Source of the DNA: a virus
Taxonomy: Duplodnaviria; Heunggongvirae; Uroviricota; Caudoviricetes
Direction: 5' to 3' (one strand)
DNA: 10,309 nucleotides
IMG/VR virus record: IMGVR_UViG_2585427736_000001
A program made the position numbers and the translations under genes. Of this stretch, positions 37 to 10,309 are shown piece after piece (positions within the stretch are counted from its first letter, which is position 1; the number at the start of each line of letters is the position of its first letter). Under the pieces are notes generated by a model, which worked only from the letters and a program-made list of their open reading frames with translations, made no database searches and was not told the origin of the DNA.

Positions 37-870
37 ATGACAGTGAAAGTAAAGCGTTTTCGCATCGGGGTGGAAGGTGCCACCACCGACGGACGCGAAA
101 TCCAGCGTGAATGGCTGGAACAGATGGCAGCCAGCTACAACCCGACGGTGTACACCGCGCTGATTAACCTTGAGCACATCAAGTCTTATCTGCCGGACAG
201 CACCTTTAACCGCTACGGCAAGGTGACGGCGCTGTTTGCTGAAGAAATCACGGAAGGTCCGCTGGCAGGCAAGATGGCGCTGTATGCCGACGTTGAGCCA
301 ACGGAGTCCCTGGTGGAACTGGTGAAAAAAGGCCAGAAATTATTCACCTCTATGGAAGTCAGCCCGAAGTTCGCTGATACGGGCAAAGCCTACCTGGTCG
401 GCCTGGCTGCCACTGATGACCCTGCCAGTCTGGGCACTGAAATGCTGACATTCAGCGCCAGTGCAGCCCATAACCCGTTGGCAAACCGCAAGCAGAATCC
501 TGCCAATCTCTTTACCGCTGCAGAGGAAACGGTGATCGAACTGGAAGAAATCCAGGACGACAAACCGTCCCTGTTTGCCCGCGTCACGGCGCTGTTTACC
601 AAAAAAGAGCAGTCCGATGATGCCCGGTTCTCTGATGTGCATAAGGCCGTGGAACTGGTCGCCACTGAGCAGCAGAACCTGAGTGCGCGCACCGAAAAAT
701 CCCTGTCTGAGCAGGAAGAACGCCTGTCTGAGCTGGAGACTGCCCTGCAGGCACAGCAGACCGCCTTTAACGAACTGGTGGACAAGTTGAGCCAAGAAGA
801 CAGCCGCCAGGACTACCGCCAGCGTGCAACAGGCGGTAACGCCCCCGCTGACACTCTGACCAATTGCTGA
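37..870 (+). CDS. O: capsid scaffolding protein (P2 gpO family)
   Basis: 277-aa ORF; N-terminus MTVKVKRFRIGVEGATTDGREI... and C-terminal ...ATGGNAPADTLTNC resemble P2 gpO as I recall it; position immediately upstream of the major capsid gene; GGAG-type RBS (aacGGAGcacggctcATG). Confidence 0.88.
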   Translation: MTVKVKRFRIGVEGATTDGREIQREWLEQMAASYNPTVYTALINLEHIKSYLPDSTFNRYGKVTALFAEEITEGPLAGKMALYADVEPTESLVELVKKGQKLFTSMEVSPKFADTGKAYLVGLAATDDPASLGTEMLTFSASAAHNPLANRKQNPANLFTAAEETVIELEEIQDDKPSLFARVTALFTKKEQSDDARFSDVHKAVELVATEQQNLSARTEKSLSEQEERLSELETALQAQQTAFNELVDKLSQEDSRQDYRQRATGGNAPADTLTNC

Positions 871-886
871 TGGAGCACAAAACCCG

Positions 887-1945
887 ATGAAGAAGAATAC
901 CCGCTTTGCTTTTAACGCTTACCTGCAGCAGCTGGCGCGTCTGAACGGTGTGGCAGTTGAAGAACTGTCCAGCAAGTTCACCGTAGAGCCGTCCGTGCAG
1001 CAGACATTGGAAGACCAGATCCAGCAGTCCGCCGCTTTCCTGACGCTGATTAACGTCACGCCAGTGACTGAGCAGTCCGGTCAGCTGCTGGGGCTGGGAG
1101 TTGGCAGCACCATTGCCGGAACCACTGACACCACCGCGAAAGAGCGTGAACCTGTCGATCCGACGCTGATGGTCGATGTGGAATATAAATGCGAGCAGAC
1201 CAACTTTGACACGGTACTGACCTACGCGAAGCTGGACCTGTGGGCGAAGTTTCAGGATTTCCAGGTGCGCATCCGTGACGCCATCGTGAAACGTCAGGCT
1301 CTGGACCGCATCATGATCGGCTTTAACGGCGTGAAGCGTGCGAAAACCTCCAACCGTAGCGAAAACCCGCTGCTGCAGGATGTGAACAAAGGCTGGTTGC
1401 AGAAAATCCGTGAAGATGCACCGGATCACGTCATGGGCAGCACCACCACGGGCGGTGAAACCACACCGGGTGCGGTGAAAGTCGGGAAAGGGGGCGAATA
1501 TGCCAACCTGGACGCCGTAGTGATGGATGCCGTCAATGAGCTTATCGACGTGGTCTACCAGGACGATGACGATCTGGTGGTGATTTGCGGTCGTGAACTG
1601 CTGTCTGACAAGTATTTCCCGCTGGTCAACAAAGAGCAGGAAAACAGTGAAAAACTGGCTGCCGATATGATCATCAGTCAGAAACGCATGGGTGGCCTGC
1701 AGGCGGTGCGTGCGCCGTTCTTCCCGCCGAATGCGCTGCTGATCACCCGTCTGGATAACCTGTCCATCTACTGGCAGGAAGATACCCGCCGCCGTTCAGT
1801 TATCGACAACCCGAAACGTGACCGGATTGAAAATTTTGAATCCGTTAACGAAGCCTATGTGGTTGAGGACTATCGCTGCGCTGCACTGGTGGAAAACATC
1901 CAGATTGGTGACTTCAGCGCCGCTGCAGCAGAAACCGGAGCGTAA
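887..1945 (+). CDS. N: major capsid protein (P2 gpN family)
   Basis: 352-aa ORF; motifs TRFAFNAYLQQLARLNG, KFTVEPSVQQTL, LDLWAKFQDFQVRIRDAIVKRQALD, KYFPLVNKEQENSEKLAADMIISQKR match remembered P2 gpN; GGAG 11 nt upstream of ATG. Confidence 0.92.
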   Translation: MKKNTRFAFNAYLQQLARLNGVAVEELSSKFTVEPSVQQTLEDQIQQSAAFLTLINVTPVTEQSGQLLGLGVGSTIAGTTDTTAKEREPVDPTLMVDVEYKCEQTNFDTVLTYAKLDLWAKFQDFQVRIRDAIVKRQALDRIMIGFNGVKRAKTSNRSENPLLQDVNKGWLQKIREDAPDHVMGSTTTGGETTPGAVKVGKGGEYANLDAVVMDAVNELIDVVYQDDDDLVVICGRELLSDKYFPLVNKEQENSEKLAADMIISQKRMGGLQAVRAPFFPPNALLITRLDNLSIYWQEDTRRRSVIDNPKRDRIENFESVNEAYVVEDYRCAALVENIQIGDFSAAAAETGA

Positions 1946-1948
1946 TTC

Positions 1949-2599
1949 ATGAGCCTGAGTCCCGCACGGCAGCATCGCCTGCGCGTTCAGGCTGAACAGG
2001 CCGCTCGCGAAGGTGGCAGTGTTCGCCACGCGTCGGGCTATGACCTGATGCTGCTGCAACTGGCGGAAGACCGCCGCCGTCTCAAGGGCGTTCAGTCCAC
2101 GGTCAAAAAAGCGGAAATCAAGGTGGAGCTGCTGCCGAAATACGCTGCCTGGGCAGAGGGTGTCCTGGCTGCCGGAGGCGCTCAACAGGATGACGTGCTG
2201 ATGTACGTGATGCTGTGGCGCATTGATGCCGGAGATTATGCCGGGGCGCTGGAGATCGGGCGTCACGCCCTGCGTCATGGCTGGGTGATGCCACTAGGTA
2301 ACCGCAACGTGCAGACCGTGCTGGCAGAGGAAATGGCAGATGCAGCCCAGAGCGCAATGCTTGCCGCCACCGGCTTTGATGCCGATCTGTTGCTGCAGAC
2401 CCTGGAGCTGACAGACGGTATGGATATGCCGGACCAGTCACGGGCGCGTCTGCATAAAGCGATTGGCGCTGTCCTGAGTGAAAGAAATCCGGCGTCTGCC
2501 CTTAATCATCTCAACCATGCGTTACAGCTCGATCCCCGCTGTGGCGTGAAAAAAGACAAACAGCAGCTGGAGCGCAGACTGCGCAATGACAGCCGCTGA
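1949..2599 (+). CDS. M: terminase small (endonuclease) subunit (P2 gpM family)
   Basis: 216-aa ORF 3 nt after N stop; motifs QDDVLMYVMLWRIDAGDYAGALEIGRHALRHGW and LELTDGMDMPDQSRARLHK resemble P2 gpM; synteny. Confidence 0.87.
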   Translation: MSLSPARQHRLRVQAEQAAREGGSVRHASGYDLMLLQLAEDRRRLKGVQSTVKKAEIKVELLPKYAAWAEGVLAAGGAQQDDVLMYVMLWRIDAGDYAGALEIGRHALRHGWVMPLGNRNVQTVLAEEMADAAQSAMLAATGFDADLLLQTLELTDGMDMPDQSRARLHKAIGAVLSERNPASALNHLNHALQLDPRCGVKKDKQQLERRLRNDSR

Positions 2600-2604
2600 C
2601 AGAA

Positions 2605-2630
2605 CGTGCCCCCGCGCACGGGCGGCACGG
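2605..2630. other. GC-rich imperfect stem-loop in the M-L intergenic region
   Basis: cGTGCCCCCGcgcaCGGGcGGCACgg can fold with arms GTGCC/GGCAC and CCCG/CGGG; no downstream T-tract. Confidence 0.25.
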
Positions 2631-2695
2631 GGTGGCGAAAGGCACTGCCACATCAAAACCCCGTCCACCGCCCTCTATTTCAGGAGAAAGCAGCA

Positions 2696-3159
2696 TGAAG
2701 TTTGTTGCGCCAGAACAGGCACCGGAACAGGCGGAAATCATCAGGAATACGCCGTTCTGGCCTGATGTGGACCTGTCGGAGTTTCGCAGTGTGATGCGCA
2801 CTGACGGCACGGTGACGCAGCCGCGTTTAAAGCAGGTTGCGCTGTCGGCAATTTCGGAGGTCAACGCAGAGCTGTATGAGTTTCGCAGACGCCAGCAGAT
2901 GCTGGGGTATGCCTCGCTGGCAGAAGTCCCGGCGGAACAACTGGACGGCAAAAGCGAGCGCATTCAGCACTATTTCAACGCGGTTTACTGCTGGGCACGC
3001 GCCATGCTCAACGAACGTTACCAGGACTATGACGCCACGGCATCCGGTGTGAAGCGGGGCGAGGAACTGGCAGAAGCCAGCGGTGATTTGTGGCGTGACG
3101 CCCGCTGGGCCATCTGCCGGGTACAGGATGCGCCGCACTGCACAGTGGAGCTTATCTGA
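2696..3159 (+). CDS. L: head completion/stabilization protein (P2 gpL family)
   Basis: Start chosen at ATG 2696 because of strong RBS (tttcAGGAGaaagcagcATG); the ORF track extends in frame to GTG 2632, which remains an alternative start. Motifs NTPFWPDVD, NAELYEF, LWRDARWAICRVQ fit gpL; stop overlaps X start (ATGA-type). Confidence 0.83.
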
Positions 3160-3362
3160 TGAAAGTGCGTGCGCATCAGTATGACACGGTGGACGCACTT
3201 TGCTGGCGTCATTACGGGCGCACGCAGGGTGTCACGGAGCAGGTACTGAAGGCAAATCCGGGGCTTGCCGAATTTGGCCCTTTTTTACCTCACGGGCTGC
3301 AGGTGGATCTGCCGGACATTCCGACCACCACCACCGTGCAGACCGTCCAGCTATGGGACTGA
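3159..3362 (+). CDS. X: tail protein X (P2 gpX family, LysM-like small protein)
   Basis: 67-aa ORF, same length as P2 gpX; motif YGRTQGVTEQVLKANPGLAE...LPHG...LPD and C-terminal QLWD resemble gpX; synteny. Confidence 0.85.
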   Translation: MKVRAHQYDTVDALCWRHYGRTQGVTEQVLKANPGLAEFGPFLPHGLQVDLPDIPTTTTVQTVQLWD

Positions 3363-3365
3363 ATT

Positions 3366-3581
3366 ATGACGCTTGAGCGAATCAGCGCCTTTATCACGTA
3401 TTGCATCGCCGTTGTGCTGGCCTGGCTGGGCGATTTGTCCATCAAGGATGCCTCAACGCTGGGTGGCCTGATGATTGGTGTGCTGATGCTGGCTATCAAC
3501 TGGTACTACAAACACAAAGCCTACCAGCTTCTGCGCGACGGGCAGATCTCGCGGGAGGATTATGAATCCATCAATCGTTAA
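3366..3581 (+). CDS. holin, class II (two predicted TMDs), possibly a pinholin
   Basis: 71-aa protein with two hydrophobic stretches (ISAFITYCIAVVLAWLG and LGGLMIGVLMLAINWYY) and a charged C-terminus; sits at the position of P2 holin Y; 3' end overlaps the endolysin start by 20 nt. Confidence 0.7.
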   Translation: MTLERISAFITYCIAVVLAWLGDLSIKDASTLGGLMIGVLMLAINWYYKHKAYQLLRDGQISREDYESINR

Positions 3582-4074
3582 ACGCTGCCTTGTCGGGGCC
3601 GTGCTGGCTATTGCTGCCACGCTGCCGGGTTTTCAGCAACTTCACACCTCCGTGGAGGGGCTGAAACTGATTGCCGATTACGAAGGCTGTCGTCTGCAGC
3701 CGTATCAGTGCAGCGCGGGTGTCTGGACCGACGGCATTGGTAATACATCTGGCGTCATTCCAGGCAAAACCATTACGGAACGACAGGCAGCGGAAGGGCT
3801 GATCTCCAACGTGCTACGTGTGGAGCGGGCACTGGAAAAGTGTGTGAAGCAACAGCCGCCGCAGAAGGTGTATGACGCTACGGTGTCGTTTGCCTTCAAC
3901 GTGGGGACGGGCAATGCCTGCAGTTCCACGCTGGTGAAATTGCTCAACCAGCGGCGCTGGGCGGATGCGTGCCGACAGTTGCCGCGCTGGGTTTATGTAA
4001 AAGGTGTGTTTAATCAGGGGCTGGATAACCGCCGTGTGCGGGAGATGGCCTGGTGTTTACAGGGAGCAAACTGA
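3562..4074 (+). CDS. SAR endolysin, GH24 (T4/P1-type) lysozyme
   Basis: 170 aa; N-terminal weakly hydrophobic Gly/Ala-rich segment KRCLVGAVLAIAATLPGF (signal-anchor-release type); catalytic motif DYEGCRLQPYQCSAGVWTDGIGNT with Glu41 and Thr56 aligning to T4 lysozyme E11/T26; GGAGG RBS 5 nt upstream of ATG. Confidence 0.85.
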   Translation: MNPSIVKRCLVGAVLAIAATLPGFQQLHTSVEGLKLIADYEGCRLQPYQCSAGVWTDGIGNTSGVIPGKTITERQAAEGLISNVLRVERALEKCVKQQPPQKVYDATVSFAFNVGTGNACSSTLVKLLNQRRWADACRQLPRWVYVKGVFNQGLDNRRVREMAWCLQGAN

Positions 4075-4075
4075 A

Positions 4076-4453
4076 ATGAAAAAGAAATTAATCAGCGGGC
4101 TGTTTCTGATGTTATGGATGGCGCTGTTAATCGCAGCAATGGTGTATCCGCAGGGGATTTTTCCGGTACTGGCAGCGTCCGGCGTTTGGGTAGCCTGTTT
4201 GCTGACATGGGTGGTAATTCCGGTAGCACTGGATGCGTTAATTAAGAATGGCCCGCTCTGGCAGGAGTTGAGGGCATCTTTGCTGAAGGCAATTACCCGA
4301 AAAGAAAACGTATTTATCAGCTGGGTGATGCGATTGCTGATTGTCGTAAGTCTCGCCTGGACGGGGTGGGCCATTACCCTGGTCTTTTATCTGCTGACCG
4401 TTATTGCCTTCTGGATCACACGTAACCAGATGGCGCAACAGGTAGCAGCATGA
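4076..4453 (+). CDS. LysA-like multi-pass inner-membrane protein of the lysis cassette (function uncertain)
   Basis: The track ORF 4004..4453 overlaps the endolysin; I take the first in-frame ATG after the endolysin stop (4076; MKKKLISG...). About 125 aa with four predicted TMDs; occupies the position of P2 lysA; stop overlaps the i-spanin start (ATGA). Confidence 0.55.
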   Translation: MKKKLISGLFLMLWMALLIAAMVYPQGIFPVLAASGVWVACLLTWVVIPVALDALIKNGPLWQELRASLLKAITRKENVFISWVMRLLIVVSLAWTGWAITLVFYLLTVIAFWITRNQMAQQVAA

Positions 4454-4878
4454 ACCGGTTGCTGCTGGTTGTGCTGGCGTTATTACTGGCGGCGCTGGGC
4501 TGGCAGACGTGGCGGCTGGCTGATGCCAGCCAGACCATCAGCACGCAGGCAGACGAACTGCAGAGCAAAAGCCAGGCGCTGGCAAAGAGCAACAGCCAGC
4601 TTATCAGCCTGTCCATTCTGACTGAAACCAATAACCGGGAGCAGGCGCGGCTCTATGCCGAAGCAGAACAGACCAGCGCGCTGCTGAGACAACGACAACA
4701 CCGGATTGAGGAACTGAAACGTGAGAACGAGGATTTACGCCGCTGGGCTGATACTCCTTTGCCTGCTGACATTATCCGGCTGCGGGAACGTCCGACGCTC
4801 ACCGGAGGTGCAGCTTACCGTCAGTGGTTGTCCGCGAGTGACGCCGTGTTGGCTGGATCAGGCAGCGCCGCGCACTAA
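4450..4878 (+). CDS. lysB: i-spanin (Rz-like; P2 LysB equivalent)
   Basis: 142 aa; N-terminal TMD LLLVVLALLLAALGW followed by a charged, Gln/Glu/Arg-rich predicted coiled-coil region (EELKRENEDLRRW); an o-spanin gene overlaps its 3' portion in another frame. Confidence 0.8.
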   Translation: MNRLLLVVLALLLAALGWQTWRLADASQTISTQADELQSKSQALAKSNSQLISLSILTETNNREQARLYAEAEQTSALLRQRQHRIEELKRENEDLRRWADTPLPADIIRLRERPTLTGGAAYRQWLSASDAVLAGSGSAAH

Positions 4879-5011
4879 CGGTGATCTGAACGCGTTGCTG
4901 GATGAAACGGAGGCCGCCTGGGCGGTCTGTGCAGACAAAGTGGACATGATTATTGCGTGTCAGGAGCGAAACAGTGAACAAACCACAATCCCTGCGCCAC
5001 GCCCTCAATAA
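4721..5011 (+). CDS. lysC: o-spanin outer-membrane lipoprotein (Rz1-like; P2 LysC equivalent)
   Basis: GTG-initiated 96-aa ORF in the +1 frame relative to the i-spanin; signal peptide with lipobox LTLSGC; small mature protein with several Cys and a Pro-rich C-terminus; overlapped (not embedded) architecture as in P2 lysB/lysC. Confidence 0.7.
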   Translation: MRTRIYAAGLILLCLLTLSGCGNVRRSPEVQLTVSGCPRVTPCWLDQAAPRTNGDLNALLDETEAAWAVCADKVDMIIACQERNSEQTTIPAPRPQ

Positions 5012-5405
5012 AGCGGTGCCTTATGTCCGCAATAACCCGGACAAACTGCATCTGTTTGTGGATAACGGTTCGCTGGTTGCCACGGGGGCCAGCTCCATGT
5101 CGTGGGAGTACCGTTACACCCTGAACGCGGTGATTGAGGATTTCAGCGGCGACCAGAATCTGCTGATGGCCCCGGTTTTGCTGTGGCTGAGGGATAACCA
5201 GCCCGATGCCATCAATAACCCGGCGTTACGGGAAAAACTATTCACCTTTGAGGTGGATATTCTGCGCAACGATGTCTGTGATATCAGCCTGAACCTGCAA
5301 CTGACGGAGCGTGTGCTGGTCAGCACTGACGGTAGTGTGTCGAGTGTTGAAGCTATAGCGGAACCTGATGAACCTGAAGAAATGTGGACGGTGAAACGTG
5401 GCTGA
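4974..5405 (+). CDS. R: tail completion protein R (P2 gpR family)
   Basis: The track ORF begins at TTG 4953; I prefer GTG 4974 preceded by cAGGAGcgaaacaGTG, giving (M)NKPQSLRHAL... which aligns with my recollection of the gpR N-terminus; motifs FVDNGS, EYRYTLN, LTERVLVS fit gpR. Start codon uncertain. Confidence 0.8.
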   Translation: MNKPQSLRHALNKAVPYVRNNPDKLHLFVDNGSLVATGASSMSWEYRYTLNAVIEDFSGDQNLLMAPVLLWLRDNQPDAINNPALREKLFTFEVDILRNDVCDISLNLQLTERVLVSTDGSVSSVEAIAEPDEPEEMWTVKRG

Positions 5406-5844
5406 ACTGCAGAAAGTGGACGACTGGCTGAGTGCCTTGCTGGCGAATCTGGAGCCAGCCGCCAGAAGTCGCATGATGCGCCAGCTGGCGCAGGAACTGC
5501 GCCGGACACAGCAGCAGAACATCAGGATGCAACGCAATCCTGATGGCAGCAGCTATGAACCGAGGCGAGTAACAGCACGCAGTAAAAAAGGCCGTATCAA
5601 ACGGCAGATGTTTACAAAACTTCGCACCACAAAATACCTGAAAACTGCCGCTAGCGCCGACTCTGCCAGCGTGCAGTTTGAAGGTAAGGTGCAGCGCATT
5701 GCCCGTGTTCACCATTACGGCTTGCGCGATCGCATCAGTCGCAAAGGACCTGAGGTCCGTTACGCAGAACGTCGCCTTCTGGGTGTAAATGATGATGTTG
5801 AGGCAATGACCCGCGACATGATTCTGCAATGGCTGGCGGGGTGA
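5398..5844 (+). CDS. S: tail completion protein S (P2 gpS family)
   Basis: GTG-initiated 148-aa ORF overlapping the R stop by 8 nt; synteny and size match gpS (about 150 aa). Confidence 0.83.
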   Translation: MAELQKVDDWLSALLANLEPAARSRMMRQLAQELRRTQQQNIRMQRNPDGSSYEPRRVTARSKKGRIKRQMFTKLRTTKYLKTAASADSASVQFEGKVQRIARVHHYGLRDRISRKGPEVRYAERRLLGVNDDVEAMTRDMILQWLAG

Positions 5845-5848
5845 TCTT

Positions 5849-5866
5849 TGTATCAGCACTGATACA
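5849..5866. promoter_or_regulatory. perfect 18-bp palindrome TGTATCAGCACTGATACA (TGT-N12-ACA); candidate Ogr/Delta-type late activator site for a PV-like late promoter
   Basis: Sits in the only sizeable intergenic gap (5845..5912) between S and V, where P2 has its PV late promoter; P2/P4 late promoters carry a TGT-N12-ACA dyad upstream. The spacing to the V start codon looks short for a -55 centred site, so confidence is moderate. Confidence 0.4.
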
Positions 5867-5912
5867 AGTTGCAGCACTGCCGCCTTTCTTCCCCTGATGG
5901 CAACCTTTCCCT

Positions 5913-6491
5913 ATGAACGCACAATTAACCGAAATCATGCGCCTTATCACCAACCTGATCCGCACAGGTGTAGTCACCGAAGTGGACAGGGCAAACTGGC
6001 TGTGTCGGGTGAAAACGGGCGACCTCGAAACCAACTGGATTAACTGGCTGACACTGCGCGCGGGCAAATCGCGCACCTGGTGGAAACCGTCTGTGGGTGA
6101 GCAGGTTGTGCTGTTCAGCCTTGGCGGCAATCTGGAAACCGCGTTTGCCCTGCCTGCGGTCTACTCAAACCAGTTTCCGCCACCTTCAGGCTCTGAGGAC
6201 GGCAACGTGACGGAATACCCGGACGGCGGCTGGTTTGAATACGAACCCGCCACCGGGCGCTGGTATGTCAGGGGCATCAAATCAATGGTCATTGAGGCCG
6301 CTGACAATATCACCCTGAAAACCAGTGAGTTTGTGCTGGAGGCTGACCGCACGCGTATTAACAGCGAAGTGGTGATCAATGGTGGCGTTACCCAGGGCGG
6401 CGGAGCGATGAGCTCTAACGGGATTGTGGTTGATGCGCATCAGCATACTGGCGTCCTGAAAGGCGGCGATACAACCGGAGGCCCGGTATGA
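5913..6491 (+). CDS. V: baseplate spike/assembly protein V (P2 gpV family)
   Basis: 192 aa; motifs LIRTGVVTEVD, WLTLRAGKSRTWWKPSVGEQV and the C-terminal Gly-rich SSNG...HQHTG resemble gpV; weak RBS, and the in-frame ATG at 5937 is an alternative start. Confidence 0.87.
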   Translation: MNAQLTEIMRLITNLIRTGVVTEVDRANWLCRVKTGDLETNWINWLTLRAGKSRTWWKPSVGEQVVLFSLGGNLETAFALPAVYSNQFPPPSGSEDGNVTEYPDGGWFEYEPATGRWYVRGIKSMVIEAADNITLKTSEFVLEADRTRINSEVVINGGVTQGGGAMSSNGIVVDAHQHTGVLKGGDTTGGPV

Positions 6492-6847
6492 CGCTTTATA
6501 GCGGGATGAACAATACCAGCGGCAAAGTCATTACTGATATTGATCATCTGCGCCAGTCGGTGCGGGACATTCTGCTGACACCGCAGGGTAGCCGCATTGC
6601 CCGCCGGGAATATGGTTCCCTCCTGTCGGTTTTAATAGATCAGCCACAAAATCCGGCATTACGCCTGCAGGTCATGTCGGCAGTGTATGTGGCGCTGAGT
6701 CGCTGGGAGCCACGGCTGACGCTGGATTCCATCACCATCAACAGCAACTTTGACGGTTCTATGGTGGTGGAGCTGACCGGGCGGCGGAATAACGGTGTGC
6801 CTGTGTCCCTTTCCGTATCAACAGGAGCAGAGAATGGCAGTGATTGA
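6488..6847 (+). CDS. W: baseplate wedge protein W (P2 gpW / gp25-like family)
   Basis: 119 aa, ATGA overlap with V; size and position as P2 gpW (115 aa). Confidence 0.87.
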   Translation: MTLYSGMNNTSGKVITDIDHLRQSVRDILLTPQGSRIARREYGSLLSVLIDQPQNPALRLQVMSAVYVALSRWEPRLTLDSITINSNFDGSMVVELTGRRNNGVPVSLSVSTGAENGSD

Positions 6848-7742
6848 CCTTTCGCAGTTGCCTGCACCGCAGATTGTGGATGTGCCGGACTTTGAGACGC
6901 TGCTTGCCGAACGCAAGGCCCAATTTGTTGCGCTTCATCCGAAAGATGAGCGGGAAGCCGTGATCCGCACGCTGGAACTGGAATCTGAACCCGTCACTAA
7001 ATTGTTGCAGGAGAACGCTTACCGTGAGTTGCTTCTGCGCCAGCGCATTAACGAAGCCGCGCAGGCGGTGATGGTGGCTTACGCGATGGGCGGCGATCTT
7101 GACCAGCTCGCTGCCAACTACAACGTGACACGCCTGACGGTGACGCCTGCTGATAATGATGCTGTGCCGCCCGTTGCAGCTGTGATGGAAAGCGATGAAG
7201 CGTTACGTCTGCGTGTGCCTGCAGCCTTTGAAGGGCTTTCTGTTGCGGGGCCAACTGCAGCTTATGAATTTCATGCCCGAAGCGCCGACGGTCGGGTGGC
7301 GGATGCCAGTGCAACCAGCCCAGCACCTGCAGAGGTGGTGCTGACTGTCCTTAGCCGCGAAGGCGATGGAACTGCAGAAAAAGACCTGCTGGACGTGGTG
7401 GAAAAAGCTCTGAACAGTGAGAACGTCCGCCCGGTGGCTGACCGTCTTACGGTTCGCAGCGCAGAAATCATCCCGTATCGCGTGGAAGCCACTATTTTTC
7501 TCTATCCGGGACCGGAAGCAGAGCCGGTAATGGCAGCGGCAAAAGCCAGTCTGCAGAAGTACATTGCCAGCCAGACGAGGCTTGGTCGGGATATTCGCCG
7601 TAGCGCCATCTTTGCTGCTCTGCATGTTGAGGGTGTTCAACGTGTGGAACTGGCTTCTCCGCTGGCGGATGTGGTCCTGAACAAAACACAGGCGGCATCA
7701 TGTACGCAGTGGAGCGTAACCAACGGAGGAACGGATGAATAG
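6834..7742 (+). CDS. J: baseplate assembly protein J (P2 gpJ family)
   Basis: Start set at ATG 6834 (MAVIDLSQLPAPQI...) preceded by acAGGAGcagagaATG, rather than the track's upstream 6795; about 302 aa, equal to P2 gpJ length; overlaps the W stop. Confidence 0.88.
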   Translation: MAVIDLSQLPAPQIVDVPDFETLLAERKAQFVALHPKDEREAVIRTLELESEPVTKLLQENAYRELLLRQRINEAAQAVMVAYAMGGDLDQLAANYNVTRLTVTPADNDAVPPVAAVMESDEALRLRVPAAFEGLSVAGPTAAYEFHARSADGRVADASATSPAPAEVVLTVLSREGDGTAEKDLLDVVEKALNSENVRPVADRLTVRSAEIIPYRVEATIFLYPGPEAEPVMAAAKASLQKYIASQTRLGRDIRRSAIFAALHVEGVQRVELASPLADVVLNKTQAASCTQWSVTNGGTDE

Positions 7743-8340
7743 TCTGCTGCCACCGGGTTCAACTTCACTGGAGCGCCGACTGGCGCAAACCTGTAGCGGG
7801 ATTTCTGATCTGCAGGTGCCGCTGCGTGACTTGTGGAATCCGGCGACTTGTCCGGTCAGTTTCCTGCCTTATCTCGCCTGGGCGTTCTCTGTGGATCGCT
7901 GGGACGAGAGCTGGACAGAAAGCGTCAAACGCCAGGTGGTGAAGGATGCTTTTTATATTCATCAGCACAAAGGAACCACCAGTGCCGTGCGGCGGGTGGT
8001 GGAGCCGTTCGGCTTCCTGATCCGCATTATTGAGTGGTGGCAGACCGGAGAAACACCGGGCACGTTTCGCCTGGATATCGGCGTGCAGGACCAGGGCATC
8101 ACTGAAGATACCTATCTGGAACTTGAGCGGCTGATAAGCGATGCCAAACCATGTAGCCGTCACATGATCGGCATGTCCATCAATCTGCAGACCAGCGGTC
8201 CGCATTGGGTGGGGGCCGCCAGCTATCTTGGCGAAGAAATCACGATCTATCCGTATATCAACGAAACAATTATTTCCGGCGGCACCGCGCATGAAGGCGG
8301 GGCGGTCCATGTTATTGACACAATGAGAGTGAATCCATGA
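7735..8340 (+). CDS. I: baseplate/tail protein I (P2 gpI family)
   Basis: 201 aa; overlaps the J stop (ATGAATAG); position between J and the tail fiber gene as in P2. Confidence 0.85.
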   Translation: MNSLLPPGSTSLERRLAQTCSGISDLQVPLRDLWNPATCPVSFLPYLAWAFSVDRWDESWTESVKRQVVKDAFYIHQHKGTTSAVRRVVEPFGFLIRIIEWWQTGETPGTFRLDIGVQDQGITEDTYLELERLISDAKPCSRHMIGMSINLQTSGPHWVGAASYLGEEITIYPYINETIISGGTAHEGGAVHVIDTMRVNP

Positions 8341-9839
8341 GCACAAAATTTTATACCCTGCTGACGGATATTGGCGCGGCGAAACTTGCCAGCGCCGCCG
8401 CGCTCGGTGTGCCGCTAAAAATTACCCATATGGCGGTGGGCGATGGCGGCGGAACATTGCCAACGCCGGACGCCAAGCAGACAGCATTGGTAAATGAGAA
8501 ACGCCGGGCTGCGCTGAATATGCTCTATATCGACCCGCAGAACAGCAGCCAGATTATTGCTGAACAGGTGATCCCTGAAAACGAGGGCGGTTGGTGGATA
8601 CGTGAAGTGGGCCTGTTTGATGAGTCCGGGGCATTGATTGCCGTGGGCAACTGCCCGGAAAGCTATAAGCCGCAACTGGCTGAAGGCAGCGGGCGTACCC
8701 AGACCGTGCGCATGGTGCTGATTACCAGCAGCACGGACAATATCACCCTGAAAATCGACCCTGCCGTAGTGCTGGCAACCCGCAAGTATGTGGATGACAA
8801 GGTACTGGAGCTGAAGGTGTACGTGGATGATCAGATGGCAAAACATCTTGCCGCACCGGACCCGCATTCACAGTATGCACCCAAAGAAAGTCCGACGTTT
8901 ACCGGGACACCAAAAGCGCCAACTCCAGCGGCAGGGAATAACACCACGCAGGTTGCGACCACCGCGTTTGTTCAGGCGGCACTGACGGCTCTTATTAATG
9001 GTGCGCCAGCCACGCTGGACACGCTGAAAGAAATAGCCGCAGCCATTAACAATGATCCGAATTTCAGTACCACCATTAACAATGCGCTGGCACTGAAAGC
9101 GCCGTTGTCGAGTCCGGCACTCACCGGAACGCCAACAGCCCCCACTGCTGCACAGTCGGTCAACAATACACAGATTGCCACCACGGCTTTTGTGAAATCG
9201 GCGATTGCAGCAATGGTAGGTTCTGCACCTGCGGCACTGGATACACTGAACGAACTGGCGTCGGCGTTGGGGAATGATCCGAACTTTGCCACGACAATGC
9301 TTAATGCGCTGGCAGGTAAACAACCGCTGGACAATACGCTGACTAATTTGAGTGGAAAGGATGTCGCTGGTCTTCTCGCATACCTTGGAATAGGAGAAAC
9401 GGGAAAATACGACATTCTGCCAGCATCAAGAGGAGGCACTGGAGCGTCAACTATAGCCGGAGCATTGATAAACTTTGGTCTGAGTGATTTAGTGACTGCC
9501 GGATTAGTACAGGTGGAATCTGGTACAGACTTTATTACTGCTAAGATTCCGTTTCTGTCCGGTGGTAAAAAGCGATTCCTGATGATTCATGCCATCAAGG
9601 CGACAATGCCAGCAAATAATAATGGCTATAACCTTACCGTTACGTTCCCGACTGCCTACGATAACGCACCTATACCTATTCTTGGATCAACTGTAGGACT
9701 GACGTCAACAACGGGCGGTACAACAGAGTCAATGAATATTTCATCAGTCACAAAATCGGGTTGCATCATTTCTTCAGCATGGCAAACATGGTCTGAGGGA
9801 CCGGTATATCTTTTAACGATTGGAGGAGTTGCAGCATGA
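8337..9839 (+). CDS. H: tail fiber protein H (P2 gpH family) with conserved N-terminal domain and variable C-terminal receptor-binding region
   Basis: 500 aa; ATGA overlap with I; N-terminus MSTKFYTLLTDIGAAKLASAAALG... typical of P2/Mu-type tail fibers; internal tandem fiber repeats; low-GC C-terminal portion. Confidence 0.9.
   Translation: MSTKFYTLLTDIGAAKLASAAALGVPLKITHMAVGDGGGTLPTPDAKQTALVNEKRRAALNMLYIDPQNSSQIIAEQVIPENEGGWWIREVGLFDESGALIAVGNCPESYKPQLAEGSGRTQTVRMVLITSSTDNITLKIDPAVVLATRKYVDDKVLELKVYVDDQMAKHLAAPDPHSQYAPKESPTFTGTPKAPTPAAGNNTTQVATTAFVQAALTALINGAPATLDTLKEIAAAINNDPNFSTTINNALALKAPLSSPALTGTPTAPTAAQSVNNTQIATTAFVKSAIAAMVGSAPAALDTLNELASALGNDPNFATTMLNALAGKQPLDNTLTNLSGKDVAGLLAYLGIGETGKYDILPASRGGTGASTIAGALINFGLSDLVTAGLVQVESGTDFITAKIPFLSGGKKRFLMIHAIKATMPANNNGYNLTVTFPTAYDNAPIPILGSTVGLTSTTGGTTESMNISSVTKSGCIISSAWQTWSEGPVYLLTIGGVAA
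8889..9332 (+). repeat. two tandem copies of a 74-codon (222-bp) tail-fiber repeat inside H
   Basis: SPTFTGTPKAPT...TTQVATTAFVQAAL...APATLDTLKEIAAAINNDPNFSTTINNALALKAPL (8889..9110) versus SPALTGTPTAPT...NTQIATTAFVKSAI...APAALDTLNELASALGNDPNFATTMLNALAGKQPL (9111..9332); roughly half the positions identical by eye. Confidence 0.75.
9373..9398. other. candidate 26-bp serine-invertase crossover site (gix/hix/cix-like) inside H
   Basis: TTCTCGCATACC-TT-GGAATAGGAGAA: imperfect dyad of two 12-bp half-sites around a central dinucleotide, with the ACC-TT-GG core resembling remembered hix/gix sites; lies at the GC-content break in H. Confidence 0.45.
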
Positions 9840-10222
9840 AATATTATTCACCTTCAATTAATGGATTTCCCGAACAAAAGACTGATGACAGTATTGAGAT
9901 CAGTGAAGAGGTCTGGAGAATACTTCTTAGTGAAATTTACTCAGGCCGGGAGTTATTTAACGATGGCGGCGTACCCGCTACCCGTGTGCCGCAACCTACG
10001 CAAGAACAAGTAATTGCAGCCGCAGAAAATGAGCGCCAACGATTGCTGAATTATGCTGATACCGTAATGCTCGACTGGCGTACAGAATTGATGCTGGGTG
10101 AAATCAGCGACGCCAACAGGGCTAAATTGTCGGCGTGGCTGGCTTATAAAAATCAAGTTAAGTCGGTTGATGTGACAACTGACCCTGAGCATGTTAACTG
10201 GCCTATTCCCCCGGAGGCGTAG
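9836..10222 (+). CDS. G: tail fiber assembly protein / chaperone (P2 gpG / Mu U / Tfa family)
   Basis: 128 aa; ATGA overlap with H; C-terminus ...KLSAWLAYKNQVKSVDVTTDPEHVNWPIPPEA is the conserved tail-fiber-assembly C-terminal motif; AT-rich like the H 3' end. Confidence 0.85.
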   Translation: MKYYSPSINGFPEQKTDDSIEISEEVWRILLSEIYSGRELFNDGGVPATRVPQPTQEQVIAAAENERQRLLNYADTVMLDWRTELMLGEISDANRAKLSAWLAYKNQVKSVDVTTDPEHVNWPIPPEA

Positions 10223-10309
10223 GCCATTCAATATCTGGCGCACCGGAAGTATCGACCAGTTCCAGTGCGTCCAGATAATCCAGCCACGAATTATATTGCG
10301 CCAGTTCCT
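10203..10309 (-). CDS. 3' end (C-terminal 34 codons) of a second, convergent tail fiber assembly gene; 5' part lies beyond the window
   Basis: Reverse-complement translation of 10309..10206 gives ELAQYNSWLDYLDALELVDTSGAPDIEWPTPPGE followed by stop (10205..10203), the same C-terminal motif family as G; not in the ORF track because no start codon lies within the window. Confidence 0.6.
   Translation of the reverse strand, partial: ELAQYNSWLDYLDALELVDTSGAPDIEWPTPPGE

Follow-up and report, generated by a model that had tools for sequence, protein, structure and literature searches.

The tail-fibre gene H of an Escherichia coli element carries, inside its reading frame, a 26-bp sequence that resembles the recombination sites of Gin-type DNA invertases. 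Is this sequence one end of an invertible fibre segment, the remains of a former one, or a coincidence? The stretch of DNA analysed here ("the window") is the entire 10,309-bp E. coli contig JOQF01000055.1 (GCA_000713945.1; L005 in our set), which stops inside the presumed segment. We consider, at a probability of roughly 0.88, that the sequence is the left site of a Gin/Cin/Pin-type (Din family) invertible tail-fibre segment of a P2-like E. coli prophage.

The window and the site in gene H

The Pfam families of its called genes place the host element among the P2-like prophages of E. coli. Its late genes run from scaffold O, capsid N, small terminase M, L, X, holin and lysozyme to LysA/B/C, R, S, V, W, J and I, in agreement with the P2 module order O-N-M-L-X-lysis-R-S-V-W-J-I-H-G, then FI; in relatives the sheath gene comes after an invertase gene. 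Identities of 95-98% link the window to P2-like prophages of E. coli and to Escherichia phage 500465-1 (Peduoviridae, Wadgaonvirus); for this phage the value is 95.6% over positions 4337-9398. The coordinates of all features are collected in Table 1.

Table 1. Features of the tail-fibre locus in the window, and right-hand sites in its relatives
Feature	Sequence	Position	Strand	Remarks
P2-type late genes	window	37..8340	+	Pfam families of genes called on L005
Tail-fibre gene H, 500 aa	window	8337..9839	+	ORF and translation; follows V, W, J, I in P2 order
Constant part Sc of H	window	8337-9386	+	codons 1-350
Left (Sc-proximal) crossover site, 26 bp	window	9373..9398	+	single exact occurrence of the 26-mer in the window
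Outer half-site TTCTCGCATACC	window	9373-9384	+	
Central dinucleotide TT	window	9385-9386	+	
Inner half-site GGAATAGGAGAA	window	9387-9398	+	
Variable tip SvA of H, currently expressed	window	9387-9839	+	codons 351-500; 150 aa
In-window portion of the putative invertible segment	window	9387..10309	.	core to contig end; GC 0.46
Tail-fibre assembly (chaperone) gene paired with SvA, 128 aa	window	9836..10222	+	Pfam Caudo_TAP, E = 2e-19
tfa' (second assembly gene, convergent), 3' end	window	10203..10309	-	last 34 codons; Pfam Caudo_TAP; cut by contig end
Right site	L007	3489-3514	-	core TT
Right site	L004	12646-12671	-	core TT
Right site	L002	7664-7689	-	core TT

The left site begins at base 2 of codon 346 of H and spans codons 346-354, encoding L-L-A-Y-L-G-I-G-E. 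The initial annotation had placed it there and had likened it to the sites of Gin-type invertases, and both statements hold. It is built as a Din-family crossover site, from two imperfect 12-bp half-sites around a 2-bp core, and agrees with P1 cixR and with e14 pixL at 20 of 26 bases each, sharing ATACC-TT-GG with the former. The gix, cix and pix sites used for comparison were taken from the annotated Mu, P1 and K-12 records; agreement at 20 or more of 26 bases with any of five such authentic sites was reached in one of 300 dinucleotide shuffles of the window. The ACC-TT-GG core argument of the initial annotation rests on a hixL sequence that gave no match in a full-text literature search, and cix and pix, rather than this sequence, are the apt comparators. 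The 12-2-12 dyad described there is likewise present, with 9 of 12 positions symmetric, but it is not unusual by itself: dyads of at least this symmetry number nine in the window against a mean of 4.7 in shuffles. We reject the symmetry as evidence, since it is commonplace by chance. On the complementary strand the inner half-site reads TTCTCCTATTCC, with TT where gix, cix and pix carry AA (TATTCC vs AAAACC), and forms a less canonical predicted binding site.

Nucleotide composition switches at the site, as had been described, from a GC content of 0.551 in H (8337-9372) to 0.449 in 9399-9839 (0.462 in 9399-10309). Two mosaic homology breakpoints also fall within it: phage 500465-1 remains homologous up to 9398, and a pinE-bearing e14/Mu-like prophage is homologous from 9374 onwards. 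A weak in-frame look-alike, encoding ALINFGLSD, lies 90 bp downstream (9463-9488); with 8 mismatches to cixL it is near chance.

Residues 1-150 of H match Pfam Phage_tail_fib, and the uncharacterised SvA tip (150 aa) contains no Pfam domain. The assembly gene next to SvA corresponds to U of Mu and tfaP of e14, and accompanies this tip in every context found. The convergent second assembly gene that had been noticed at the window edge is indeed there: its fragment, whose translation ends with ...DIEWPTPPGE before the stop codon, overlaps the plus-strand assembly gene tail-to-tail by 20 bp and belongs to the gene that serves the silent alternative tip.

The contig end was considered as a sign of mixed orientations and rejected, as the break sits in tfa' and not at the site; the contig is unbroken at the crossover site, so that the assembly gives no hint of mixed orientations. 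A repeat common to other prophages seems the likelier cause of the break, because the final 99 bp of the window are found again, with 96% identity, in phage 500465-1. The window shares the break inside tfa' with one further contig (L006).

Second site, silent tip and invertase in relatives

The sequence of the window ends at 10309, and the complete system was read in relatives, namely L004 (97.5% identical to the window, with an identical H protein), L007 (99.68% identical over the final 2.8 kb of the window, positions 7494-10309) and two E. coli chromosomes (L002 and L003). The initial annotation had anticipated an inverted second site downstream, an alternative fibre C-terminal ORF on the minus strand and a serine recombinase of about 190 aa, and the relatives possess all three.

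Measured between core centres, the right site lies 1,609 bp from the left one in L004 and L007 (1,609-1,627 bp including L002). It is inverted and has the TT core and the codon phase of the left site. In L007 and L004 it reads TTTTCATAAA(T/C)G-TT-GGTTTAGGAGAA on the minus strand, and the right outer half-site of L007 carries one further change (AAATG vs AAACG). The right site of L004 differs from e14 pixR at one base. Left and right sites agree at only 18-19 of 26 bases, which is why an 8-base-seed repeat finder missed the right site in L002 and L003, where it was found by reading the DNA upstream of the silent tip.

In L004 and L007 the silent alternative tip is a 132-aa minus-strand ORF (Pfam Gp53-like_C), which follows the full 143-aa tfa' gene. 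The relatives hold two convergent tip-plus-chaperone cassettes, with both sites in the same codon phase, and when the segment of L007 or L004 is inverted in silico the frame stays open and yields a 468-aa H'.

The invertase gene is located between the right site and the tail-sheath gene. Its product is a serine recombinase of 188 aa with the Pfam domains Resolvase (E = 2e-53) and HTH_7, an N-terminus of the form MLIGYVRVS(9)TNDQ and the serine Ser9. Its identity is 87% with PinE, 79% with Cin and 76% with Gin, and the alignment to Mu Gin (PDB 3UJ3; E = 8e-93) runs over the full length. The gene occurs in all five relatives that extend that far, intact in L001, L002, L003 and L004 and truncated in L012, where the contig stops; in L007 its first 77 codons are present. 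Over its nucleotides 19-90 the invertase gene shows 78% identity to the annotated enhancer of P1 cin, compared to 68% for the remainder of the gene, and the synonymous codon identity of this enhancer-like region (0.54 vs 0.41) is a weak signal and suggestive only.

A shufflon (Rci tyrosine recombinase, multiple sfx sites) was also considered and is rejected, as the recombinase is of the serine type and only two good sites were found per locus. In the metagenome contig L013 the segment is flanked on both sides by an invertase gene. These two genes share just 79% identity, too little for a simple palindromic artefact of mixed orientation, and the contig is more probably a chimeric assembly at low coverage.

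Both orientations and the rival readings

Two E. coli isolates, L002 and L012, possess a 1,632-bp segment that is 99.94% identical and lies in opposite orientations between flanks of the same orientation. Both sites of L012 equal the predicted hybrids without a mismatch, with the half-sites swapped exactly at the central TT, and the 466-aa form of H predicted for L002 after inversion is the form observed in L012. Both orientations, and a precise exchange of half-sites, exist in nature between isolates. Since the same segment is found in both orientations at this level of identity, the comparison implies a recent inversion. The segment carries the inner half-site GGAATAGGAGAA in both orientations, and the corresponding stretch of the window (9387..10309) aligns inverted to L012 at 97.3%. 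Together with the full architecture in the relatives, the flip supports the layout of a host-range switch of the Mu G/P1 C type that had been proposed for this locus.

The flipped form came from a protein search and the draft contig L012. Among complete E. coli genomes SvA occurs in only three, always in the expressed position and once in an e14/Mu-like prophage, and the flipped configuration was not found in these three. Silent-position copies of SvA do exist (P0004, P0009). The tip is joined exactly at L/GIGE (the slash marks the junction) to at least four different N-terminal parts, which include P2-like H, a 247-aa protein of e14/Mu-like type, a 240-aa protein and a silent leader beside the invertase (MMPVS..CIFLNV/GIGETGKYD).

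A site-like sequence alone does not prove activity, because H of phage P2 carries one in a genome without an invertase. The site of the window could accordingly be a fossil, a former crossover site now unused in this strain, whose invertase or partner is lost or dead and whose fibre is fixed as Sc-SvA. The gix-like site of P2 at the equivalent position, the non-canonical inner half-site and the end of the sequence before the region of right site and invertase would all suit this explanation. We nevertheless regard it as improbable: the window includes the start of a second, convergent cassette that is absent from P2, every relative that reaches far enough has the invertase gene (and L007 its beginning), and a segment with the very same inner half-site appears to have inverted recently.

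A still smaller probability is given to the possibility that the site acts as a joint for module exchange only, in which case the recurrent fibre peptide motif (..L-G-I/L-G-E..) would provide a homology patch for ordinary recombination and would be no substrate of an invertase. The union of SvA at the site with several unrelated N-terminal parts, and the weaker in-frame look-alike ALINFGLSD downstream, are in favour of such exchange, but ordinary recombination leaves the precise inversion with reciprocal exchange of half-sites at the central dinucleotide unexplained, as module exchange does the constant Pin-like invertase beside the right site. Exchange and inversion are moreover compatible, so that the former would be an addition to the latter and not its replacement. 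That an imperfect palindrome resembles invertase sites by chance could appeal to the abundance of 12-2-12 dyads, but this is effectively refuted by the rarity among shuffles of an equally good match to an authentic site, by the flipped segment of L012 with its predicted hybrid sites, and by the position of the site, which coincides exactly with the GC switch and with both of the independent homology breakpoints.

Under the preferred reading, an invertible tail-fibre segment, the small serine invertase encoded just past the right end would pair the left site with its inverted partner about 1.6 kb downstream, cut both sites at the central TT, rotate the halves and religate them. The constant 350 codons of H would lose the SvA tip of 150 aa, which has its own 128-aa chaperone gene, and would be fused in frame with the alternative Gp53-like_C tip of about 118 aa, whose chaperone gene would become co-oriented with the late promoter. 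The junctions after inversion would read ...GCATACC-TT-GGTTTAGGAGAA between Sc and the alternative tip and TTTTCATAAATG-TT-GGAATAGGAGAA between the invertase side and SvA. The outcome would be a fibre of 468 aa instead of 500 aa, presumably directed at a different host receptor. The genome of the window itself probably has a right site and an invertase as well; inversion is probably still active in its strain, would be expected to depend on Fis and presumably changes the host range.

It is also conceivable, although we think it unlikely, that the crossover sites are universal docking joints at which a resident Pin-like invertase moves tip-plus-chaperone cassettes between unrelated prophages of one cell (P2-like, e14/Mu-like and others). 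SvA with its unusual GGAATAGGAGAA half-site might be a cassette travelling in this manner. The weak in-frame look-alike at 9463-9488 might then allow a third arrangement. The basis for this idea is that SvA stands in four or more fibre contexts and is attached in each precisely at the core.

In terms of annotation, this prophage family has two alternative H products, of which the 500-aa form is only one, and short "hypothetical" or "gp53-like" ORFs beside a recombinase are silent fibre tips and not separate genes. Many such P2-like prophages could release particles with two host ranges, since the H region of the window is matched in 2,531 of 5,426 complete E. coli genomes (about half).

Comparison with known tail-fibre switches

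The mechanism of tail-fibre inversion entered the textbooks with Mu, P1 and e14. The G segment of Mu with Gin and the C segment of P1 with Cin belong to the same mechanism class and follow the same gene logic (Sc with Sv/U vs Sv'/U'), and in both the crossover site is embedded in the fibre gene, with the reading phase seen here. The segment of 1.6 kb is, however, half the size or less of those in Mu (about 3.1 kb) and P1 (4.3 kb), and the fibre tips are much shorter. Mu also has a TC core, in contrast to the TT core found here, and long perfect repeats of 34 bp, where the two sites of the present system share only part of their bases.

Phage P2 has a homologous N-terminus of H and a homologous gene order. 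Its H contains the gix-like sequence TTATCGAATATC-TC-GGTTTACAGGAA, three mismatches from Mu gix, at the equivalent position (...EYLGLQE...), but P2 lacks a second cassette and an invertase; G, fun(Z) and FI follow H, and the P2 site is a relic.

The P segment of e14 in E. coli K-12 with PinE (stfP-tfaP / tfaE-stfE) displays the same layout as the present system, with a constant 5' fibre part, a site, Sv-tfa, a convergent tfa'-Sv', a second site and the invertase. Its tfaP and tfaE overlap tail-to-tail, as do the two assembly genes here, and its core is likewise TT. The site pixR of e14 reads TTTTCATAAACG-TT-GGTTTGGGAGAA, so that an inner half-site GGTTTGGGAGAA stands against GGAATAGGAGAA in the window. 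The SvA-tfa cassette itself occurs, with 96.5% DNA identity, in an e14/Mu-like prophage with pinE in strain USMARC-49610. The present system differs from e14 in its host element, a P2-like myovirus prophage, in its constant part, the 350-codon N-terminus of P2 H, and in the location of the invertase gene between the segment and the tail-sheath gene FI.

In EPEC E2348/69, whole-genome sequencing together with PCR demonstrated that tail-fibre loci of P2-like prophages invert and that their orientations coexist (Goldberg et al. 2014, PMC4272514). The tail-fibre gene of Fels-2 is reported to be flipped between Salmonella LT2 and LT7 (PMC7953296). The EPEC locus at 2977580-2979467 has the order tip, tfa, tfa', gp53-like tip, recombinase and sheath, which is of the same kind as here, and the right site of this experimentally inverting locus is identical to that of L001, L002 and L003. 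The EPEC loci nevertheless represent a different lineage: apart from 267 bp of tfa' with 91% identity, their DNA is about 65-79% identical, and their invertases share 80-83% identity with the one described here. One of them has three sites and four states, compared to the two sites found in the present system, and neither the EPEC nor the Fels-2 loci have the window's SvA as their tip. The type of switch is thus already known and published in P2-like prophages; its biology is ordinary and leaves the current understanding unchanged.

The crossover site within tail-fibre gene H

The evidence supports reading the 26-mer of gene H as the left of the two crossover sites in a tail-fibre switch with two states. 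The Gin/Hin-type site proposed in the initial annotation is supported by its match to the P1 and e14 sites cixR and pixL, by the full system in related prophages and by an inversion between two of these (L012 and L002). The 26-mer occurs once in the window; its first base is base 2 of codon 346, and its translation reads LLAYLGIGE. The genes upstream of H are P2 late genes in P2 order, and the H protein is named in the database as an E. coli phage tail protein. GC content within H is 0.551 before the site and 0.449 after it, with 0.46 through to the window end. All elements described earlier for the window, namely the 26-mer, the H ORF, the GC change and the convergent assembly gene, were recovered. 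SvA, the variable and currently expressed receptor-binding tip of H, is without a Pfam domain, and every database copy is labelled "phage tail protein" or "hypothetical". Among 5,426 complete E. coli genomes only 3 contain SvA, whereas about half contain the constant part of H.

Features of the window, right sites of related loci and invertase sites read from annotated records for comparison (sites as outer half, core, inner half where divided)
Feature	Position	Strand	Description or sequence
Tail-fibre gene H, 500 aa	8337-9839	+	P2 H-type; Pfam Phage_tail_fib, residues 1-150
Left site	9373-9398	+	TTCTCGCATACCTTGGAATAGGAGAA
SvA tip, 150 aa	9387-9839	+	
Look-alike site	9463-9488	+	CATTGATAAACT-TT-GGTCTGAGTGAT
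Tail-fibre assembly gene, 128 aa	9836-10222	+	Caudo_TAP
Second, convergent assembly gene, final 34 codons	10203-10309	-	20-bp overlap with first assembly gene
Right site, L007		-	TTTTCATAAATG-TT-GGTTTAGGAGAA
Right site, L004		-	TTTTCATAAACG-TT-GGTTTAGGAGAA
Right site, L002, L003, L001		-	TTTTCTTAAACG-TT-GGTTTGGGAGAA
Mu gix			TTATCCAAAACC-TC-GGTTTACAGGAA
P1 cixR (Sc side)			TTATCCAATACC-TT-GGTTTAAGAGAA
P1 cixL			CAATCCTAAACC-TT-GGTTTAAGAGAA
e14 pixL			CTCTCGAAAACC-TT-GGTTTGGGAGAA
e14 pixR			TTTTCATAAACG-TT-GGTTTGGGAGAA

Of the 26 positions of the window site, 20 agree with cixR and 20 with pixL, and all three sites share the TT core. A match of at least 20/26 to any of the five comparison sites arose in 1 of 300 window shuffles, and the likeness to real invertase sites is more than chance. 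The 12-2-12 dyad noted in the initial annotation is present at 9 of 12 positions, but its symmetry is not more than chance and is no evidence alone, as nine such dyads occur in the window versus 4.7 in dinucleotide shuffles. The look-alike site, 90 bp into the variable tip, has eight mismatches to cixL and the codon phase of the main site (encoding ALINFGLSD); it is near chance, with about 0.2 expected, and brings to mind an EPEC P2-like locus with three sites and four states.

The complete system in related prophages

The window is the entire contig JOQF01000055.1 (10,309 bp, identical; assembly GCA_000713945.1) and therefore permits no extension within its record. An identical H protein is found on three further contigs: L007 (JOQG01000091.1), whose identity to window 7494-10309 is 99.68% and which runs on for 1.0 kb more; L004 (188 kb), with 97.5% identity across the tail genes; and the shorter L006, with the same end point as the window. 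After this point L004 and L007 share a convergent assembly gene that is complete at 143 aa, a minus-strand ORF of 132 aa with a Gp53-like_C domain, and a plus-strand gene whose 188-aa product has Resolvase and HTH_7 domains (first 77 codons only in L007), next to which L004 has the tail-sheath gene. The 132-aa ORF and the 188-aa product are the alternative fibre ORF and the serine invertase of about 190 aa that had been predicted downstream. Gene order is the same in L002 and L003, the two closest complete E. coli chromosomes, and in L001, Escherichia phage 500465-1 (Peduoviridae), in which the recombinase is annotated as "recombinase family protein" or "DNA invertase".

The inverted second site, likewise predicted, is present in L004 and L007, 1,609 bp from the left site (core to core). 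Read on the minus strand, the right sites stand directly upstream of the silent tip ORF and share the TT core of the left site, and that of L004 differs from pixR by one base. Codon phase is equal, with (A)TT TTC ATA AAC GTT GGT TTA GGA GAA on the right and (C)TT CTC GCA TAC CTT GGA ATA GGA GAA on the left, and in-silico inversion at the core in either contig yields an open H' of 468 aa (...LLAYL/GLGEAAK...).

The recombinase aligns with Mu Gin (PDB 3UJ3, 4M6F) over 184 residues (E ~1e-92), and starts with MLIGYVRVSTNDQ, in which the serine at position 9 is of the catalytic type. Its identity is 87% with PinE, 79% with Cin and 76% with Gin. Nucleotides 19-90 of its gene, the counterpart of the annotated P1 cin enhancer, show 78% identity versus 68% over the remaining gene, and synonymous codon identity across the four genes (gin, cin, pinE and this one) is 0.54 within these nucleotides versus 0.41 outside them, a pattern that is compatible with, and no proof of, a conserved enhancer. 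We infer that this strain has both the right site and the invertase in its genome; the inner half-site, slightly non-canonical with TATTCC in place of AAAACC, would still be efficiently used, and inversion would require Fis and alter host range.

The window and L006, an independent assembly, break at one base (10309 and 7699, respectively), inside the second assembly gene and off any crossover site, and the last 99 bp of the window have a 96% copy in phage 500465-1. The break likely results from a repeat common to other prophages rather than from orientation heterogeneity. L004 has an additional 176-aa gene without a Pfam match between S and V (6951-7481, minus strand), possibly a cargo insertion; the equivalent position in the window holds only a 68-bp spacer (5845-5912).

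Evidence for use of the site

Homology breaks inside the 26 bp in two cases. Phage 500465-1 is 95.6% identical up to 9398 and divergent beyond, and L008, a pinE-bearing e14/Mu-like prophage of E. coli strain USMARC-49610, is without upstream homology and 96.5% identical from 9374 onward. L008 (NZ_CP104123.1, 3698-6224) has the SvA-plus-chaperone cassette joined to a short fibre N-terminus of the e14/Mu type adjoining pinE, which shows that unrelated prophage types share this cassette with the junction exactly at the crossover site. With the junction exactly at L/GIGE, SvA follows several N-terminal sequences: the constant part of P2 H, an e14-type protein of 247 aa, a protein of 240 aa and a short leader (MMPVS..CIFLNV). 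This leader, found in proteins P0004 and P0009, corresponds to the half of the right site on the invertase side, and SvA is therefore in the silent position in both.

P0004 is encoded on contig L012, a P2-like E. coli prophage whose expressed fibre has 466 aa (Phage_tail_fib and Gp53-like_C); SvA, together with its chaperone gene, is turned there towards the recombinase gene. Relative to L002, the flanks are collinear (96.5%) and the segment of 1,632 bp runs in the opposite direction at 99.94% identity; the alignments switch within both sites. Both L012 sites are exactly the predicted hybrids with 0 mismatches (TTCTCACATACC-TT-GGTTTGGGAGAA and TTTTCTTAAACG-TT-GGAATAGGAGAA), the signature of conservative exchange at the central dinucleotide.

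A metagenome contig (L013 1-2852; ERZ2272655 NODE_3551) carries an invertase gene on both sides of the segment, the two being 79% identical, and both tips in the silent position; it is a chimera of two prophages, assembled at low (3x) coverage, or else a genuine double-invertase arrangement.

Relation to known switches

At the equivalent point of its gene H (...EYLGLQE...), phage P2 has a gix-like 26-mer, TTATCGAATATC-TC-GGTTTACAGGAA, with three mismatches to Mu gix (L020 858-883; NC_001895.1 13857-13882). P2 has this sequence but no invertase or second cassette, and a site-like sequence alone is therefore no proof of a switch; the P2 26-mer has the appearance of a remnant, left by an ancestral switch or by module exchange. 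Set against P2, the window is distinguished by its second cassette, in convergent orientation, and by relatives of 97-99.7% identity that carry the whole system. Judged by layout, site sequences and enzyme, its predicted system belongs to the Gin/Cin/Pin group, with the e14 P segment as its closest known counterpart. In P2-like prophages of EPEC E2348/69 segment inversion was directly shown by sequencing and PCR (PMC4272514); the right site of the EPEC locus L018, in a prophage of another lineage, equals that of L002, and the L018 invertase is 80% identical. Between Salmonella LT7 and LT2 the Fels-2 tail-fibre gene, adjoining a pin homologue, is reported to be flipped (PMC7953296), and a 2024 preprint reports invertases with inverted neighbour genes at this P2 hotspot. 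The present element is individually undescribed, and its kind is thoroughly known.
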